A stretch of 64,000 nucleotides of DNA from positions 18,373-82,372 of the forward strand of contig NZ_NXLL01000007.1 of assembly GCF_003364115.1 (NCBI RefSeq), given 5' to 3'. The notes under the pieces were generated by a model. The model ran no database searches. It was not told the origin of the DNA and worked only from the letters and a program-made list of their open reading frames with translations. Origin of the DNA: Helicobacter sp. MIT 00-7814 (GTDB lineage Bacteria; Campylobacterota; Campylobacteria; Campylobacterales; Helicobacteraceae). Position numbers and translations under genes: made by a program. Shown piece by piece: positions 1,802 through 56,421 of this stretch; the stretch's first letter is position 1; every line of letters begins with the position of its first letter.

Positions 1802-1804
1802 TCC

Positions 1805-1915
1805 TTGTGTCACTTGTGCGGGGTTTTGTCCGCACAAGTTCCGATCCTATTCCTTCAATTAGTATCGTCTGCGTGGAAACGAATCGCACTTCGCCTCCGC
1901 TTCGCGCGCATACTC
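1805..1915. repeat. GC-rich palindromic repeat element (hairpin 1812-1821/1830-1839 plus conserved tail gaatcgcacttcgcctccgcttcgcgcgcatactc)
   Basis: perfect 10-bp inverted repeat acttgtgcgg/ccgcacaagt; related copies at 54425-54530, 19840-19875, 20670-20715. Confidence 0.5.
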
Positions 1916-1970
1916 TATCTTTTTTAATTAATGAGATTGTGAGATTCTATCGCCTTAGCTTAAAATCCAC

Positions 1971-5471: not shown

Positions 5472-7337
5472 TTATATGCGTCTTTTAAATTCTCTTACGC
5501 ATGACTCGTTGCGACCACAGCGCTTGCATCGATAATAGTCTTTTTCTTCACCAACTTTGTAGCTTACTCTTCTATAACTACCATCGCTTTGCTTCTCATC
5601 TTGGGTGATAATATTTTCACTCAATAACTCCGTCTTTACGAGTTTCCAGCAAAAATAGTTTCCACAGGATTCGCAGTAAGTATCACCTTTAATGCCGTAA
5701 AATACACCAACTATAGAAAGCACGATTAAAATCGCCCAAATGGTGAAAAATAATTCTTCTGAATATGCAACTCCAAAATATTTTAAAATTGCAACAATAA
5801 GCAATGTAAGGAAAAACCCAACTAAACCGCCTACGAGGATACCTCCTCCCAAAAATGACACGAGTATAGTGCCAAACCTAGTAGAAGTGCGATACTTCCA
5901 ATCTATTTTTTTAGTATTAGCGCGCTGTTTTTTCATTCGTGCTTCTTTTTTGTATTCTGGGGAGCTTATGTCATCTTGCTTGAAGCTTGTCGCACCTTCA
6001 AACATATTCTTCATACTCAAAACTTTGCTTACATTCCATTTATTAAGTGGTTGATTAAAGCTTGTCGCACCTGCAAACATATGTCCCATATTTATAACAC
6101 TACTTACATTCCATTTATTAAGTGGTTGATTAAAGCTTGCCGCATCCGAAAACATAAGAGACATATGTGCAACATTGCTTGTATCCCAATTATTAAGTGG
6201 TTGGTTGAAGCTTTTGGCGCGCTTAAACATACCAGTCATACCTGTAACACTACTTACATTCCATTTATTAAGTGGTTGATTGAAATTTTCCACACCTGAA
6301 AACATAAGCCCCATATCTGTAACACTACTTACATCCCATTTATCAAGTGGTTGATTAAAGCTTGTCGCACCTGCAAACATACACTGCATATCTGTAACAC
6401 TACTTACATTCCAATTATTAAGCGGTTGATTGAAGCTTTTGGCACTCATAAACATACTATTCATATCTGTAACACTACTTACATCCCAATTATCAAGTGG
6501 TTGATTGAAATATTCTGCATTCTCAAACATACTACTCATATCTGTAACATTACTTACATCCCAAGTCTCTATACCGCTAAAGTCCTTGCGCTTGCTCTCT
6601 TTGAAAAGCTCGCTCATATTAGTGATAGCGCTTGTATCAATATCTGCTAATGAGACATCTTCATCAAAAGCTAAAACTTTTAATACTATAGGGCTAGTTG
6701 GCTTATATTTTCCATTAATTTTTTGAAACCCTTTATTAAACCAGCTAGGGAGGCTCTGCATACCGCTAGATTCAAACATATCTTTTGCAGATATTGCTTT
6801 AACATTCCAGCTTTCAAGATTTTGATTGAAGTTTGTAGCATCCTTAAATATAAGAGCCATATCCATAACTTTGCTTACATTCCATTTATCAAGTGGTTGG
6901 TTAAAGCTTGTTGCACTCATAAATATACCTCTAATTTCTGCAACATTGCTTGTATTCCAATTGTTAAGTGGCTGGTTAAAGCTCGTTGCATGCGCAAACA
7001 TACCTTTCATATTTGTAACATTACTTATATCCCAAGAATTAAGCGGCTGATTAAAGCTTTTCGCATCTGCAAACATAAGAGACATATCTGTAACACTACT
7101 TACATCCCAAGAATCAAGTGGTTGGTTAAAGCTTGTTGTACCCGCAAACATAAACTTCATATTTGTAACATTACTTACATCCCAAGTCTCTATACCGCTA
7201 AAGTCCTTGCGCTTGCTCTCTTTGAAAAGTTCGCTCATATCAGTGATAGCACTTGTATCAATATCTCCTAAGTAGATACTTTCATCATTAACTAGATTTT
7301 GTAGTTCTTCTTTTGAGGTGGGTTTGTATTTTGCCAT
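5472..7337 (-). CDS. DUF285 (BspA-type / Mycoplasma-type leucine-rich repeat) protein with internal module duplication, two predicted TM helices and C-terminal C4 zinc ribbon
   Basis: about 12 copies of the ~26-aa repeat F..A..FNQPL..WdVS.VT.M..MF; residues 1-215 and 215-430 are near-duplicates (both contain IDTSAITDMSELFKESKRKDFSGIETWDVSNVT); hydrophobic stretches then CESCGNYFC...CKRCGRNESC; no signal peptide. Confidence 0.7.
   Translation of the reverse strand: MAKYKPTSKEELQNLVNDESIYLGDIDTSAITDMSELFKESKRKDFSGIETWDVSNVTNMKFMFAGTTSFNQPLDSWDVSSVTDMSLMFADAKSFNQPLNSWDISNVTNMKGMFAHATSFNQPLNNWNTSNVAEIRGIFMSATSFNQPLDKWNVSKVMDMALIFKDATNFNQNLESWNVKAISAKDMFESSGMQSLPSWFNKGFQKINGKYKPTSPIVLKVLAFDEDVSLADIDTSAITNMSELFKESKRKDFSGIETWDVSNVTDMSSMFENAEYFNQPLDNWDVSSVTDMNSMFMSAKSFNQPLNNWNVSSVTDMQCMFAGATSFNQPLDKWDVSSVTDMGLMFSGVENFNQPLNKWNVSSVTGMTGMFKRAKSFNQPLNNWDTSNVAHMSLMFSDAASFNQPLNKWNVSSVINMGHMFAGATSFNQPLNKWNVSKVLSMKNMFEGATSFKQDDISSPEYKKEARMKKQRANTKKIDWKYRTSTRFGTILVSFLGGGILVGGLVGFFLTLLIVAILKYFGVAYSEELFFTIWAILIVLSIVGVFYGIKGDTYCESCGNYFCWKLVKTELLSENIITQDEKQSDGSYRRVSYKVGEEKDYYRCKRCGRNESCVREFKRRI
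5740..7271. repeat. coding periodic repeat array (~78-bp DUF285 units) with higher-order ~620-bp direct duplication
   Basis: e.g. 6551-6665 vs 7176-7285 nearly identical; generates long spurious antisense ORFs. Confidence 0.7.
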
Positions 7338-32772: not shown

Positions 32773-33798
32773 ATGCCTTTGCTTTTTTCCTCTTTGCCTT
32801 TGGTGCAACAGCGCATTTTAGAATGGTATGGCAAAGCTGGGCGTAAAGAGCTTCCATGGCGCAACCTTAGGCGTGATGGGAGCGAGGCGTATGGCGTGTA
32901 TGTGAGCGAGATTATGCTACAGCAGACACAGGTTTCGCGCGTTTTGGAGTCTTTTTATTTTCCATTTTTAGAGCGATTTCCGACTTTGCGCGCACTAAGT
33001 GACGCGCAAGAATCTGAAGTGCTTTTGTTATGGCAGGGGCTAGGCTACTATTCCCGCGCGCGCAATATGCGAAAATGCGCACAAATTTGCGTGAGGGATT
33101 ATGGCGCGCGGCTGCCCGCAGATGTGGAATCTCTAAAGCAACTTCCGGGCATTGGGAGCTACACAGCAGGGGCGATTGCGTGTTTTGGCTTTGGGGAGAG
33201 TGTAGGATTTGTGGATTCTAATATTAAGCGACTTTTTGCGCGCCTTTTTGCGTTGCAAAATCCAACTCAAAAAGAGCTTGAAAGTCTCGCGCAACGCCTG
33301 CTTAATAAAGATGCGAGTTTTGATCACAATCAAGCTTTGCTTGATTTGGGGGCGCTTATTTGCACGCCTGCCCCGCGTTGCTTGATTTGCCCTTTGAGTG
33401 AATTTTGTCAAGGCAAAGCTGCGCCTATGCAATACCCTTTGAAAACTGCCAAAAAATATGAGAATCTGCATCTTAAGCTTTGTATTTTTTATACGCGGGA
33501 TTCTGAAGGTATTTGCTTTGCGCTTCAAAAGGCAGAAAGTGGCTTGTATGCGGGGCTTTATAATCTGCCACATTTGGGGGATTTCTCATCTGAGCAACAA
33601 GCCAAAGCGCGCTATATAGGGGATTTTAAGCATTCTTATACAAAATACAAAATCACTGCTTCTGTGTATGCACTAGAATTCCCGCTAGATTCTAAAAATC
33701 CATTAGGTAGCGACTTTGTTTTCGCGCATTTGGGGGATTTACTGCCGATTTCAAACCTCACTAAAAAGGCATTGAAATTTATGGGCGCTATTACCTAA
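32773..33798 (+). CDS. mutY: A/G-specific adenine DNA glycosylase
   Basis: HhH-GPD motif (LPGIGSYTAGAIACFGF), 4Fe-4S Cys cluster (C..PRCLICP...C), C-terminal MutT-like domain. Confidence 0.85.
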   Translation: MPLLFSSLPLVQQRILEWYGKAGRKELPWRNLRRDGSEAYGVYVSEIMLQQTQVSRVLESFYFPFLERFPTLRALSDAQESEVLLLWQGLGYYSRARNMRKCAQICVRDYGARLPADVESLKQLPGIGSYTAGAIACFGFGESVGFVDSNIKRLFARLFALQNPTQKELESLAQRLLNKDASFDHNQALLDLGALICTPAPRCLICPLSEFCQGKAAPMQYPLKTAKKYENLHLKLCIFYTRDSEGICFALQKAESGLYAGLYNLPHLGDFSSEQQAKARYIGDFKHSYTKYKITASVYALEFPLDSKNPLGSDFVFAHLGDLLPISNLTKKALKFMGAIT

Positions 33799-33810
33799 TT
33801 AAATGTATCA

Positions 33811-33835
33811 CTCATAAGAGTGAAACTCTTATGAG
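33811..33835. terminator. perfect 10-bp stem hairpin (ctcataagag-tgaaa-ctcttatgag) between convergent mutY and slyD
   Basis: seen directly; no strong T-run, so intrinsic-terminator function is uncertain. Confidence 0.35.
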
Positions 33836-34020
33836 CTCCGCTCCGCTTTCAACTGCGCGGAAATAAATTCCGCTTTGTTTCCAACTGCGCGCACATACAA
33901 AGCCTTTTTGTATTGTTTGGATTCTGTAGATTCTTTAACGCTATTTGGTTGTTTGAGAATCTGCTCCTTTTTATTTTGGTATCGCCTCTGATCCAGCTCC
34001 GCACACATACATGAGCTTTT
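33836..34020. repeat. dispersed GC-rich repeat element, copy A (about 80% identical to the reverse complement of 42535-42670)
   Basis: shared blocks ctccgctccgcttccaactgcgcggaa...ttccgctttgtttcc...gattctgtagattct(t/g)taacgctatttggt. Confidence 0.55.
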
Positions 34021-34101
34021 TTAATTGCTAAGGTTATGGGATTGTATTATAAGGGGTTGAGGTTAGAGAATCTCACTAGATTCTCTAAAATGTAGTAAAT
34101 A

Positions 34102-34650
34102 TTAATGTCCGCAGCCACAACCGCCACTACTGCAGCAGCCACCGCGTCCGCCATGATCATGTCCGCCCTCGCTTCCACAGCCACAGCCTCCACCTACGCC
34201 ACCTTGCAAGATTTCAAGCTCGCTCGCATCGCGCACACCAAGCACTTTCACTTCAAAGCTAAGCGCTTTCCCAGCTAGCGGGTGATTGTAGTCGATAATC
34301 ACAACTTCATCATTAAAGCCCTTCACAATCACTTGCGTAGTCTGCCCATCATCGCTTTGTCCAAAAAGCGTCATGCCTTCTTTTAAATCAATGCCACTAA
34401 ACTGCTCGCGCGCCACCTCTTGGATAAGATCGGCTTGATACACGCCATAGGCATCTTCAGGCTTTATCTCTGTTTTGATAACTTCGCCTGTTTTCTTGCC
34501 TAAAAGTGCATTTTCTAAGCCAGCGATGACTTGATTTGCCCCGACTAAAAATTCTAGCGGTGCGCCACCTTTGTTGGAATCTATAATATTCCCACTTTGC
34601 GTATCGATTACCTCATATTCAATACTTGCTACTTTGTTTTTTTCAATCAT
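34102..34650 (-). CDS. slyD: FKBP-type peptidyl-prolyl cis-trans isomerase SlyD with His/Cys-rich metal-binding tail
   Basis: FKBP + IF-chaperone domains; C-terminus GGGCGCGSEGGHDHGGRGGCCSSGGCGCGH. Confidence 0.85.
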   Translation of the reverse strand: MIEKNKVASIEYEVIDTQSGNIIDSNKGGAPLEFLVGANQVIAGLENALLGKKTGEVIKTEIKPEDAYGVYQADLIQEVAREQFSGIDLKEGMTLFGQSDDGQTTQVIVKGFNDEVVIIDYNHPLAGKALSFEVKVLGVRDASELEILQGGVGGGCGCGSEGGHDHGGRGGCCSSGGCGCGH

Positions 34651-42526: not shown

Positions 42527-42534
42527 GATTCTTA

Positions 42535-42670
42535 AAACTACCAAATAGCGTTACAGAATCTACAAAATCTTAGTAACCAAAAAACGCTAGGTATGGGCGC
42601 GAAGCTGGAAACAAAGCGGAATTCACTTCCGCGCAGTTGGAAGCGGAGCGGAGCTTTGGCGTTAGCCAAA
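42535..42670. repeat. dispersed GC-rich repeat element, copy B (inverted relative to 33836-34020)
   Basis: see copy A; sits between convergent RDD-protein gene and xth. Confidence 0.55.
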
Positions 42671-42696
42671 GTGATACATTTCAAAGGAATAAAACC

Positions 42697-47277: not shown

Positions 47278-47968
47278 TTTTATCGCAAGATTTAATAAAA
47301 ATTTAGAAAAAATAGATTCCCTCGCGCTGTCGTTTTATGAAAAAGATTTGCTTTTTAGCGCGTATTACAATCACCTAAACCACCTTGAGATAAGCCCGCA
47401 GACAAGGGAGCTTATGAGTAAGCTTGGCATAAGTTTTAAGCATAAAAATATTATTTTTGAATCTAAAACGCTAGATTCTCACACGTTACAAAGCAATGCG
47501 CAAAATAATCAGCCCAAAGAGCGCGAAGAGCGCGCGCTAAGTCTTTTTGCACTAAGCCTTTTTGAATGTAGTGAGCGGGCAAAAACTCTGCAGATTGAAA
47601 GCGAGCATTTTTTGGAGCAAATTAAGCTAAACCTTGAAAAAACACTTCACCCACAAGAGCTCGCGTTTTTAAAAATTAGCTCAATTTATCAAAAACTAGA
47701 GCAAGAAAAAACGCGTTTGCAAGAGGCTTTGAGCGAACTTACTGCAAATTTTTTGCAAGGATTTGAAAACCTTGAAGCACCTTTGCAAGATGAAATCACA
47801 CAAAAGGCTAATGCGCTCACACACGCGCTAGAAAAGCAAAAAAACCTTTCCGCAAAACTCTGCTTTAAAATCCTAGAAATAAAAAACGCCCAAACAAAGA
47901 ATCCAACTTCCCTTGAAACGCTTATAAACGAGCTAGACGCATATTTACAAAATATAAAACATAAATAA
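47270..47968 (+). CDS. hypothetical coiled-coil protein
   Basis: overlaps upstream ORF by 8 nt; no motif. Confidence 0.35.
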   Translation: MADFIARFNKNLEKIDSLALSFYEKDLLFSAYYNHLNHLEISPQTRELMSKLGISFKHKNIIFESKTLDSHTLQSNAQNNQPKEREERALSLFALSLFECSERAKTLQIESEHFLEQIKLNLEKTLHPQELAFLKISSIYQKLEQEKTRLQEALSELTANFLQGFENLEAPLQDEITQKANALTHALEKQKNLSAKLCFKILEIKNAQTKNPTSLETLINELDAYLQNIKHK

Positions 47969-48667
47969 AAGGATTAAAACATATACCACAATTATAAGCG
48001 GTCTAAACCACCACTTATAAAGAATTCCCTTGTTGGTTGCGGTGTTTTTGCTTGTTTCTTCTGAATTTTTGGACGCAAAATTTTCTAGATTCTGCATGAA
48101 ATTTTTCATTATCTTTTGTCGCTCGAGCTCTCTTTTGCGCGATTTTATGTCAAAATTTGCCCTTTTTGTTTTGATTGTATTTTGTTGATGTAGATACACA
48201 ATCTTTGAATCTTCCATGCTTGGCGTGATTTGTGTAATTTGCGTGATTTGGGAATCCCACCCATCTTGCGAATCCTTTATAATTTGAGACACCTTTACAA
48301 TTTGCGAATCCTTTGTATTTTGCAAATCCTGTTTGGGAGCTGGCGTTTGGGGATTTTGCGCTTTTGGGGCGGGTGTTTTTGGCGCATGTGTTTTTTGCGC
48401 TCGCTCTTGTGTTTGAAAATGTGTTTGCGTTTGAGAGTGCATTTGCACCTGCGCTTTTCTTGCCTTTAATGCCTCTGTAAAGCTTTTTTCCTCATTTGTG
48501 ATATTTGTCGTTTCATTTTCATCTAAAATATTTTTAAGATTTTTTTCTAAATCCTGCGTGTAGCCATCAAGCCTTTTGCTAAATCTTTGCCCCTCTTGCG
48601 TCCTTTTGGTGCGATTAGATTCTCTTTGTTCCCTTCGTTGTTGCGCTTTTTGCAAAAACTCATTCAT
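47945..48667 (-). CDS. hypothetical Q/T-rich protein with C-terminal TM anchor and ~21-nt imperfect tandem repeats
   Basis: repeats at 48225-48335 encode SQIVKVSQIIKDSQDGWDSQITQITQITPS. Confidence 0.35.
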   Translation of the reverse strand: MNEFLQKAQQRREQRESNRTKRTQEGQRFSKRLDGYTQDLEKNLKNILDENETTNITNEEKSFTEALKARKAQVQMHSQTQTHFQTQERAQKTHAPKTPAPKAQNPQTPAPKQDLQNTKDSQIVKVSQIIKDSQDGWDSQITQITQITPSMEDSKIVYLHQQNTIKTKRANFDIKSRKRELERQKIMKNFMQNLENFASKNSEETSKNTATNKGILYKWWFRPLIIVVYVLILLFMFYIL

Positions 48668-54424: not shown

Positions 54425-54530
54425 TATATCACTTGTGCGGGCGAAGCCTACACAAGCTCCGCTTCGCGCTCATATAAAATTTTTTAAGAATCTTCGATTG
54501 TCTCGCTTACGCTCGCGATGACGAAATCAC
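54425..54530. repeat. GC-rich palindromic repeat element (same family as 1805-1915)
   Basis: shares tcacttgtgcgg...cacaag hairpin and ctccgcttcgcgc(t)cata tail. Confidence 0.45.
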
Positions 54531-55458: not shown

Positions 55459-56421
55459 GTGTGCGGGATTAAAAAGATTGTGAGCGTTTTTTTGCTTTGT
55501 GGGATTGTGGCGCAGGGGGCAAATTTGCAAGATTCTACGCAAGAATCTACGCAAAAACGCGTAGATTCTCCCAAGCGCGCGCAAGCCACAACGCAAACTA
55601 AAAATCGTGCGCAAACATCACAAATTGCTAAAAAATCAAACACGCAAAAGCAAAGCGCAACTTTGCAGGAAAATGACTTGACAGATAATGACGCAGAGCA
55701 GGGCGCTTTGCAAGATTTAGAACAAAAGCGATCAAGTGAAGAAGAGCGCAGAAAGTCCTTAAAACCGCTTGATTATAGCAATCTTTTTAGCAAGCCACCC
55801 ATTGAGTGGGGCAAAATCGCTTCTGAAAAAAGCGGGCTTTTTGTGGGTGTTGGCGGGGCGCTTATCCCAACTATTCGCGCTGAAAATACCGCCGCACAAG
55901 CATATAGAGCAGATTATCCCTTTGGGTATGGATATGATTTGAAATTAGGATTTATGTATTTTTCAAATCCTTATGTGGGCTTTCGTTTATATGGGCAGTA
56001 TGCTAATGCAAAGTCTTTTGAGCCTTACACCAGCGCGCGTAGCACACTTTCTAGGGAATATCGAGTGAGTATGTATAGTGTGGGGCTTAGCGTGATTTTG
56101 GACACTACGCTAGGAAGTCGCTATGAACACGCCATAAGCGTGGCGATTGATGTGTCTTATAGCCCAAAGATTGATTTTCAATCGCGTTGGTGCGATGAGT
56201 TTGGCAATAGAGGCGTAAATGCCTTTAGCGCGGGAAATAAGATCGTGCTAGGGCTCGGACTTGGCTATGTGTATCGCTCAAAACACCGCCTTGAAGTGAT
56301 GTTTAAGCGTTTTACGGACATTAGAGAGAGTGCAGATTCTTTTGTGGCGATTAGAAATACCGCGCCTGTCGTGTTTAATCAACTACTTGGCGTGAGCGTA
56401 GGATATAGCTATGTTTTTTAA
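55459..56421 (+). CDS. putative outer-membrane beta-barrel protein with Q-rich N-terminal extension
   Basis: GTG start with AAGGTGA RBS; signal peptide; C-terminal ...VGYSYVF. Confidence 0.45.
   Translation: MCGIKKIVSVFLLCGIVAQGANLQDSTQESTQKRVDSPKRAQATTQTKNRAQTSQIAKKSNTQKQSATLQENDLTDNDAEQGALQDLEQKRSSEEERRKSLKPLDYSNLFSKPPIEWGKIASEKSGLFVGVGGALIPTIRAENTAAQAYRADYPFGYGYDLKLGFMYFSNPYVGFRLYGQYANAKSFEPYTSARSTLSREYRVSMYSVGLSVILDTTLGSRYEHAISVAIDVSYSPKIDFQSRWCDEFGNRGVNAFSAGNKIVLGLGLGYVYRSKHRLEVMFKRFTDIRESADSFVAIRNTAPVVFNQLLGVSVGYSYVF

Follow-up and report, generated by a model that had tools for sequence, protein, structure and literature searches.

Mosaic interspersed repeats with covarying hairpins and a terminal AGAWTCT heptamer in Helicobacter sp. 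MIT 00-7814 and its relatives

Two spacers between convergent genes in the genome of Helicobacter sp. MIT 00-7814 hold what look like copies of one palindrome-rich element in opposite orientation. What kind of element is this, how is it spread and what determines where it is found? We addressed these questions in the 64,000-nucleotide stretch that contains both copies (contig NZ_NXLL01000007.1, positions 18,373 to 82,372; hereafter the window, the genes of which carry CQA49_ locus tags) and in related genomes. A first-pass annotation of the window had proposed a dispersed, GC-rich palindromic repeat family at gene ends and likened it to MITEs, the miniature transposable elements with inverted repeats, or to repetitive extragenic palindromic (REP) sequences. 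The copies prove to belong to a family of small mosaic repeats, interspersed and non-autonomous, that is specific to the lineage of MIT 00-7814 and H. himalayensis.

The two main copies, at 33799-33962 (+ strand) and 42527-42696 (- strand), are reverse complements of each other. A repeat search of the window found the arms 33834-33954 and 42535-42655 to be 84% complementary over 121 nt, and blastn aligned the copies at 83.8% over 130 nt (E=2.6e-31). The first lies between the convergent genes mutY (HhH-GPD) and slyD (FKBP_C), the second occupies the convergent spacer between an RDD-family gene and xth (Exo_endo_phos), so that both the opposite orientation and the gene context proposed earlier are borne out. 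The extent given for the first copy has to be amended: the site was right, but the element begins at 33799, at the mutY stop codon, and a degenerate second unit follows it. When a profile made from seven aligned units was searched against the window with nhmmer, it recovered both full copies (33835-33958, E=2.5e-31; 42532-42655, E=5.7e-33) within a total of 9-10 units at six loci.

In the orientation that we call forward, a unit reads head, hairpin, CTCCGC, module B and module C. The head has the form CTATTCC(w)TT(n)AA(n)TGTATC(A/G)(C/T)C, and module A consists of this head with its GTATC, a hypervariable hairpin and (C)CTCCGC(TYCGC). Module B is GCGCNCATAC followed by a T-run, and module C is an inverted pair of the heptamer AGAWTCT, namely TAGATTCT, about 20 nt and AGAATCT. 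Units measure about 108-170 nt overall and fall into a gene-end sub-type of ~165 nt with two hairpins (H1, CTCCGCTCCGCTTCCAAC, H2, then TTTGTTTCC) and a sub-type of open reading frames (ORFs) with one hairpin and 108-135 nt. The first main copy, for example, contains TGTATCAC and H1 at 33811-33835; then come CTCCGCTCCGC..CAAC, the terminator-like hairpin H2 GCGGAAataaaTTCCGC at 33857-33873 and TTTGTTT; module B is GCGCGCACATAC..T-run, and module C (TAGATTCT..AGAATCT) closes the unit at 33927-33962. The degenerate second unit behind it (33963..34050, +; nhmmer 33986-34041, E=2.4e-5) retains the module A remnant 'ggtatcgcc', CTCCGCACACATAC and a T-run.

This anatomy does not fully fit either of the two categories suggested at first. 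The elements are not GC-rich (G+C content 0.39-0.45, against 0.423 for the window), and the repeat search revealed no terminal inverted repeats in either full copy, only internal hairpins and palindromic TTAA flanks. Target-site signals likewise differ from site to site: the RDD/xth element is bordered by TTAA..TTAA, the copy in an AtpI-like gene by an imperfect direct repeat of ~6-12 nt (aTTTTGG../aTTTGG..), and between gpsA and tolB sequence has been replaced. Without terminal inverted repeats and a consistent target-site duplication, the family is therefore most probably not a classical MITE. The resemblance to REPs is partial. It extends to an imperfect palindrome of 20-40 nt that is conserved in structure, but the conserved head is (T)GTATC(A/G)(C/T)C, the GTAG tetranucleotide of REPs is lacking and the location is not strictly extragenic.

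The remaining window loci show how freely the modules are combined. Shorter relatives behind the genes ending at 1801 and 54408 had been noticed before and are confirmed, the second less strongly, with a common architecture of ATCAC, hairpin and CTCCGCTTCGCGC. The former is a composite copy in a convergent spacer (1802..1950, +; nhmmer 1848-1950, E=2.2e-22) with an H1-type hairpin module at 1806-1846 and one ORF-type unit at 1847-1950. The latter lies in the convergent spacer behind purB (54425..54499, +; nhmmer 54427-54499, a weak E=0.011) and consists of ATATCAC, an H1 hairpin, CTCCGCTTCGCGCTCATAT and a T-run, with AGAATCT immediately after. The largest clusters of the window, overlooked in the first-pass annotation, are found in frame inside two ORFs. 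At 19818..20112 (+) a tandem array of a partial module A, one full and one truncated unit lies in reverse orientation within the gene of membrane protein CQA49_03350 (19473..20348, -), the conserved N- and C-terminal transmembrane parts of which surround the insert. At 20641..20884 (+) two tandem units of 135 and 108 nt, likewise reversed, follow codon 12 of an AtpI-like (PF09527) ORF (20335..20925, -) and give its product an 80-aa repeat insert.

Beyond the window, the profile search detected units in the metagenomic relatives that we compared (L004, L006, L007, L011, L022 and L032) and in a prophage of H. himalayensis (L023/L025), and MIT 00-7814 itself has a further copy on a different contig (P0005, CQA49_00535). 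Seven element loci of the relatives lie in parts of the genome outside the window's coverage; loci were found in the convergent Bax1-I/ABC spacer and an outer-membrane-protein-like (OMP-like) ORF of L004, at cbpA/hspR and in tsaD of L022, and in a 289-aa ORF and the spacer upstream of an amino-acid kinase gene of L032. With six window loci, another contig, the relatives and H. himalayensis, the earlier claim of dispersal rather than local duplication is upheld. The prophage, a possible vehicle for carrying the family between Helicobacter species, has 1.6 units within a small, 65-aa ORF (L023 3981-4171, BK070129.1; L025 3682-3872; nhmmer E=4e-28) and was the only match in a scan of IMG/VR; a plasmid collection gave no match. 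The family appears to be rare, because scans of the GTDB species-representative genomes and of JGI metagenomes with the strict pattern TAGATTCTNNAACGCTATTTG gave only chance matches in unrelated taxa, although this pattern misses known A/G variants (..GCTGTTTG) and the host genome, which may be masked or missing there, likewise gave no match in the GTDB scan. Exact-protein look-ups for the genes next to the 1801 and 54408 sites yielded the same strain only, and short-read contigs of this strain terminate inside copies.

Comparison of close relatives shows that units are gained or lost whole and that arrays expand and contract. In L011, which is 96-98% identical, the stop codons of xth and the RDD gene are separated by 6 nt ('acTTAAaaatctTTAag'), where the window has an element of 161 nt; bases 42536-42696 are missing from L011, and the unit must therefore have been gained or lost as a whole. 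Similarly, the AtpI-like protein has 116 aa in L007 (about 91% identical) and 196 aa in the window and L006, the extra 80 residues (240 nt) being the two repeat units past codon 12, while the gpsA/tolB spacer contains a partial element in L011 and 20 nt in the window. Orthologues of the membrane protein measure 183, 213, 272 and 290 aa and differ solely in their repeat content. The degenerate unit at 33963..34050 diverges from L011 faster than its flanks, with a 7-nt indel included. Since other indels of 6 nt or more are few between the compared genomes, the repeat loci constitute their main structural variation. The xth locus of H. winghamensis was considered as an outgroup and rejected because it is not syntenic.

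As judged from the predicted proteins, the element is translated in frame in several of them. In-frame copies occur in at least seven ORFs, all in reverse orientation, and use one open, hydrophilic frame (..SHQPNSVAES..AEFTSAQTIQSKE / AEAKCDSLARDDTING..). The same frame and peptide (..SHQPNSVAES..AEAKCDSLARDDTING..) recur in six unrelated proteins; the proteins bearing repeats are TsaD, the AtpI-like protein, the membrane protein, an OMP-like protein, a TPR protein and P0130. The hosts retain both halves around the insert (TsaD, AtpI-like and membrane protein). In the TsaD protein P0128 of a relative (458 aa), the parts that align with PDB 8iey_A are residues 3-249 and 338-438, which leaves ~88 repeat-encoded residues between residues 225 and 230 of the 8iey_A chain. 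Five close TsaD proteins of 391, 404, 440, 458 and 487 aa differ in this loop only; the TsaD of H. himalayensis carries the insert, which is absent from other Helicobacter TsaD proteins (346-366 aa). The peptide belongs to no Pfam family and has 4 matches among 1.84 billion cluster representatives, and between window and L006 the ratio of non-synonymous to synonymous polymorphism (pN/pS) of the AtpI-like protein is 0.38 in the insert and 0.09 in the host part, both from small counts. The intergenic copies, in turn, have stops in the peptide frame and keep the hairpins and their flanks.

Among close relatives the TsaD surface loop (L022 8001-9377; P0128, P0131-P0134) ranges from ~30 to ~130 extra residues. 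A large separate group of TsaD proteins, ~44% identical and 456-490 aa long, has a member in a named Helicobacter genome.

The hairpins are conserved in structure much more than in sequence. In 12 distinct copies of H2, 97.2% of cells are paired and three of six pairs show two-sided changes, with stem variants GCGGAA/TTCCGC, GCGGGA/TCCCGC and GTGCGA/TCGCAC; none of 500 shuffles scored as high, and slid controls were 31-47% paired. The stems of H1 are nearly unrelated among seven copies, of which 95.5% of cells are nevertheless paired, with compensatory changes in 7 of 10 pairs (0/500 shuffles). Such covariation points to constraint on a folded single strand or, alternatively, to a mutation process that maintains palindromes; wobble pairs were uninformative on the folding strand and on the choice between RNA and DNA. 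Folding of the whole element yielded no single global structure. The palindromic character noted in the first-pass annotation is thus substantiated as strongly covarying hairpins, but these form a string of separate structures and not a single palindrome. As to the functions that it had suggested, a consensus scan flagged H2 with TTTGTTTCC as terminator-like in both main copies (at 33857 and 42632), so that termination is a candidate function for one subfamily. A small-RNA gene finds no support: the covariance models of Rfam 15 gave one hit in the whole window, a tRNA, nothing with an E of 1 or less at 33700-34150, and at 19600-21000 a chance match to mir-217 far under its threshold.

The copies are associated with convergent gene ends. 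A rough gene map of the window comprises 7 convergent, 7 divergent and 50 co-directional junctions, and the element is present at 4/7 convergent and 0/57 other junctions (hypergeometric P ~5e-5). The four occupied junctions are all the convergent spacers above 100 nt; the spacers of the other three measure 34 nt or less and have no element. Together with the 6 nt between xth and the RDD gene in L011, these empty spacers indicate that the element is dispensable. Convergent gene ends are not its sole habitat, however, and the description as a gene-end family holds only in part, given the copies in at least seven ORFs and in three intra-operon spacers. These three co-directional spacers, found in the relatives, are each occupied in reverse to transcription, and all ten read-through contexts (7 ORFs and 3 operon spacers) accordingly have the reverse orientation. 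The ORF cases carry less weight here, because stop codons and the encoded peptide largely constrain the orientation. At the convergent site of L004 two elements stand tail to tail, each forward relative to its own gene.

In L032 (19646-19675) the start codon of the amino-acid kinase gene is immediately preceded by the reverse strand of an element 5' end (..AAAGGAATAA..), which may provide the ribosome-binding site of this gene, and in L022 (6548-6575) an element adjoins the AGGAGG of hspR.

The heptamer that closes the units is itself conspicuous. AGAWTCT is the commonest 7-mer of the window, with 194 sites where base composition predicts 11.5 (~17x; examples at 84-102, 34067-34084 and 55530-55569), and TAGATTCT occurs 85 times compared with 1.9 in shuffles. 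Sites lie in either orientation and in each of the three reading frames, with densities of 2.9/kb in genic and 5.1/kb in intergenic sequence, and the word is available about every 330 bp with Poisson spacing. Its density is 2-4/kb in all relatives of the lineage, 0.65 in H. winghamensis, ~0.5/kb in the H. himalayensis prophage and 0.1-1.2/kb in unrelated DNA. Outside the repeat loci, sites were kept more often than controls matched for frame and GC: 52 of 57 against L006 (42.9 expected, z=2.8), 27 of 34 against L007 (19.8 expected, z=2.5) and 25 of 26 against L011 (22.2 expected). By contrast with this excess of GAWTC, AGASTCT is absent from the window and GASTC (GAGTC/GACTC) has 17 sites instead of ~100, an avoidance that suggests a restriction system targeting GASTC. 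In cyanobacteria, HIP1 is 15-300-fold over-represented, present in all frames and conserved by selection (PMC5861425); AGAWTCT is likewise over-represented, in all frames and conserved above matched controls, and by this analogy it behaves like HIP1 or a DNA uptake sequence (DUS). An inverted pair of the word, AGAGAATCT-cact-AGATTCTCT, forms a 9-bp hairpin at 34065..34086, 15 nt past the slyD stop. Two further ideas were discarded: hairpin pairs resembling DUS terminators, in view of the Poisson spacing, and an origin of the genome-wide heptamers as decayed copies of module C, in view of the lack of an extended flank consensus beyond T-1/A+7. At 24000-24060, tandem duplications with GAGAATCCCGC lie within a gene, with 9-36-nt indels against L006 and L007 near heptamer-like words; this segment is a second, minor hot spot of length variation.

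Word and element are linked at one end. Every unit ends in AGAWTCT, those that are truncated or have internal deletions stop at AGAATCT or GAATC, and the junctions of the three empty sites read AGAATCT, AGAATCT and AAAATCT; the 5' boundary of the element is not at AGAWTCT. We are inclined, slightly beyond even odds, to an explanation that combines a mosaic repeat, copying anchored at the heptamer and a filter on orientation. New copies would arise by a copy-and-join process guided by hairpins or microhomology, with one side anchored at a pre-existing AGAWTCT, rather than by a transposase that cuts and pastes between terminal inverted repeats. Variable 5' flanks, truncated copies ending on the heptamer or GAATC and shuffled modules all fit such a process. 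In forward orientation, a hairpin followed by a T-tract could act as a one-way transcription stop or 3'-end hairpin; forward copies that stop transcription would then persist only where no further gene of the transcription unit follows, in practice at convergent junctions. The reverse strand has no T-tract and one open hydrophilic frame, and hence would be tolerated in operon spacers and in protein loops, where it would encode an in-frame, weakly constrained loop. Two specific components we consider about as likely to be true as false: that copying is anchored at AGAWTCT, whether through microhomology or through an enzyme with activity at this word, and that the forward strand serves as a 3' hairpin or as a terminator in one direction. 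Two variants of the joining step were rejected: crossing-over within the heptamer at either end of the element, since its 5' flanks do not read AGAAT, and a fixed 5' target word of IS605 or RAYT type, since these flanks differ at every locus.

Several observations weigh against this explanation. Because the terminal heptamer is part of the element, an 'empty' AGAATCT site could be the footprint of a deletion, and no outgroup polarises insertion against precise deletion at any site. Only three empty/filled pairs are available, one having a heptamer with one mismatch and one being a replacement, and the TTAA..TTAA at xth/RDD is compatible also with a 4-bp target duplication or a microhomology deletion. 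No mobilising enzyme was found, the Pfam-annotated neighbourhoods (~150 kb) containing no transposase-like gene. The terminator match is a match to a consensus in one subfamily, and ORF-type units have no T-tract behind H2; z-scores for folding of the whole element are modest (-0.6 to -4.5). The orientation rule comes down to three operon spacers once the ORF cases are removed, and in P0132 and P0133 part of the TsaD insert is read in a second frame.

The heptamer could also be the primary actor. Under this alternative, AGAWTCT would be a genome-wide signal of HIP1 or DUS kind kept by selection at ~3/kb, be it as a methylated word or as one related to uptake or recombination, and the mosaic repeats would be its parasite or cargo, as SDR5 is to HIP1, being copied into breaks or nicks at AGAWTCT and bringing extra copies of the word with them. 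We regard this as improbable on balance, though as deserving attention.

A little less credence is due to the idea that a Y1 (HUH) transposase mobilises the element as single-stranded DNA, as with REP/RAYT or PATE/mini-IS605 elements; a TnpA- or RAYT-type enzyme would bind the subterminal hairpins and place the element on the 3' side of a short target word. IS200/IS605 is the typical insertion-sequence (IS) family of the genus Helicobacter, terminal inverted repeats and a fixed target duplication are both absent, the hairpins are conserved by structure and not by sequence, and the one clean insertion sits directly 3' of TTAA. Yet the 5' flanks of ten independent copies have no target tetranucleotide in common, and stems as hypervariable as these contrast with the substrates of RAYT and TnpA, which normally are sequence-conserved within a genome. 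A strand preference can be read from the window, where the forward strand is the + strand, of net positive GC skew, at five of six loci, but in relatives copies of opposite orientation lie no more than 2-4 kb apart. As stated above, no transposase-like gene was seen in the ~150 kb of annotated neighbourhoods, and no IS elements are reported for H. himalayensis (PMC7685656).

Would the cell rather need the element itself, duplicated for use at gene ends as a terminator in both directions, as a small RNA or to stabilise mRNA 3' ends, with the ORF copies as by-products? The restriction of window copies outside ORFs to convergent ends, the covarying hairpins and the terminator-like H2 with its T-tract speak for such a functional RNA. 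An element absent from three of seven convergent spacers (those of 34 nt or less) and from the 6-nt spacer of L011 is hardly needed, however; its copies change more rapidly than the sequence around them and have no Rfam match, and many lie in ORFs and operons, where termination would be harmful. On these grounds we think the idea rather unlikely, and slightly more so than that of a Y1 transposase.

Much fainter is the case for a classical MITE, i.e. an internally deleted IS moved in trans by the DDE transposase of its parent. The discrete presence or absence of 161 nt with TTAA on either side is what such an element would produce, and size and copy number are typical of MITEs (PMC10969869). 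Set against this are the lack of terminal inverted repeats, junctions that vary between sites, units that are modular, truncated and tandem, the absence of reported IS elements in H. himalayensis (PMC7685656) and of a match in the plasmid collection. Hardly credible, in our view, is a protein-coding module that is shuffled between genes as a functional peptide domain and leaves intergenic copies as decayed pseudogene fragments. One frame and peptide in six unrelated proteins and an insert pN/pS of 0.38, below 1, would agree with it, but the intergenic copies have stops in frame and still retain hairpins and flanks, no Pfam family corresponds to the peptide, which matches only 4 of the 1.84 billion representatives, constraint on the insert is ~4x weaker than on the host part, and insert length varies freely in close relatives, partly in another frame in TsaD. 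Chance or a single local duplication, for which nothing speaks but the distance of only 8.6 kb between the two best copies, is already refuted by E=3e-31, the six window loci and the occurrence of copies on other contigs, in other strains and in another species.

The mosaic repeat that we favour has counterparts in several known systems. Like the REPs and bacterial interspersed mosaic elements (BIMEs) of enterobacteria and pseudomonads, it has short hairpin sub-types with compensatory stem changes, forms mosaics with other motifs at gene 3' ends and in convergent spacers, and may be linked to termination or mRNA stabilisation. It differs in its GTATC instead of GTAG head, its far more variable stems and longer units (108-170 nt), in its in-frame ORF copies, which REPs avoid, and in the absence of a RAYT gene from the window and the other loci examined. 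Neisseria has intergenic mosaic elements (NIMEs), in which dRS3 borders the RS units, and DNA uptake sequences that serve as terminators when paired. The blocks described here are similarly variable and bounded by an abundant inverted-repeat word, with inverted word pairs behind genes, but word and units are others and AGAWTCT is not paired genome-wide, as its Poisson spacing indicates.

The pneumococcal BOX element (boxA-boxB(n)-boxC) shares the modular A-B-C construction, the variable module numbers and stable transcript hairpins (PMC10969869), but is unrelated in sequence and intergenic, without known in-frame insertion in essential genes. Rickettsia palindromic elements (RPEs) come closer in behaviour, being units of ~100-150 nt in frame in unrelated genes, essential ones included, with an open hydrophilic frame and both host halves kept (PMC10969869); this likeness concerns behaviour only, as taxon and sequence are different and convergent gene ends, variable tandem arrays and the lack of a single long palindrome set the present family apart. 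Finally, the nearest precedent for the tie to the heptamer is the small dispersed repeat SDR5 of the Nostocaceae, a 21-nt module inserted precisely between bases 3 and 4 of HIP1 (PMC4390886, PMC5861425); the present family seems to resemble it as a small repeat placed at a conserved, (quasi-)palindromic word of very high abundance. The element considered here is 5-8x longer, touches its word at one end only, and belongs to the 7-mer AGAWTCT and a Campylobacterota genome.

Since REP/BIME, NIME, BOX, RPE and SDR elements are already known, the family takes its place among known kinds and is itself previously undescribed. Literature searches found a description of neither the repeat family nor the heptamer, a recent review of MITEs lists no small interspersed repeat for Helicobacter (PMC10969869), and the genome paper of H. 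himalayensis mentions neither repeats nor IS elements (PMC7685656). The HIP-like heptamer and its coupling to a repeat may be the more novel part. If AGAWTCT is indeed a genome-wide signal, this would be the first system of a HIP and a small dispersed repeat outside cyanobacteria, and one in which the same element also remodels essential proteins in frame. The best-studied member of the genus, H. pylori, uses a type IV secretion system to import DNA. Of all bacterial mobile DNA, small interspersed repeats are the least well understood, and the present family is the main structural difference between genomes that are 91-98% identical and breaks their short-read assemblies. It alters the length of proteins, including the essential TsaD, and is therefore relevant to how enterohepatic helicobacters are annotated and typed and how their proteins evolve. 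The heptamer junctions and the strict orientation rule offer handles on how the element moves and what purpose a hyper-abundant word serves, questions that are likewise open for REPs, RPEs and HIP1.

Other repeats occur in the window as well. Within the same membrane-protein ORF as the first array, a different palindromic element of 108 nt (36 codons) lies in frame at 19703-19810. Its 12-nt terminal inverted repeats match perfectly (TGGATTGCTTCG / CGAAGCAATCCA), its inner arms read CTCGCAATGACG / CGTCATTGCGAG, L006 lacks it, and a single related arm is found at 54505-54523. This element resembles a genuine MITE, of a family other than the present one. An ORF of 622 aa at 5472-7337 (minus strand) contains 75-nt (25-aa) tandem repeats at 5976-7186 with the motif FNQPLxxWDVSxVTxMxxMF and a C-terminal membrane and Cys-rich part, and resembles BspA/DUF285-like leucine-rich-repeat surface proteins. 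An 18-nt tandem repeat, TTGCGAATCCTTTATAAT, is present in ~3.6 copies at 48246-48335, in the ORF 47945-48667 (minus strand).

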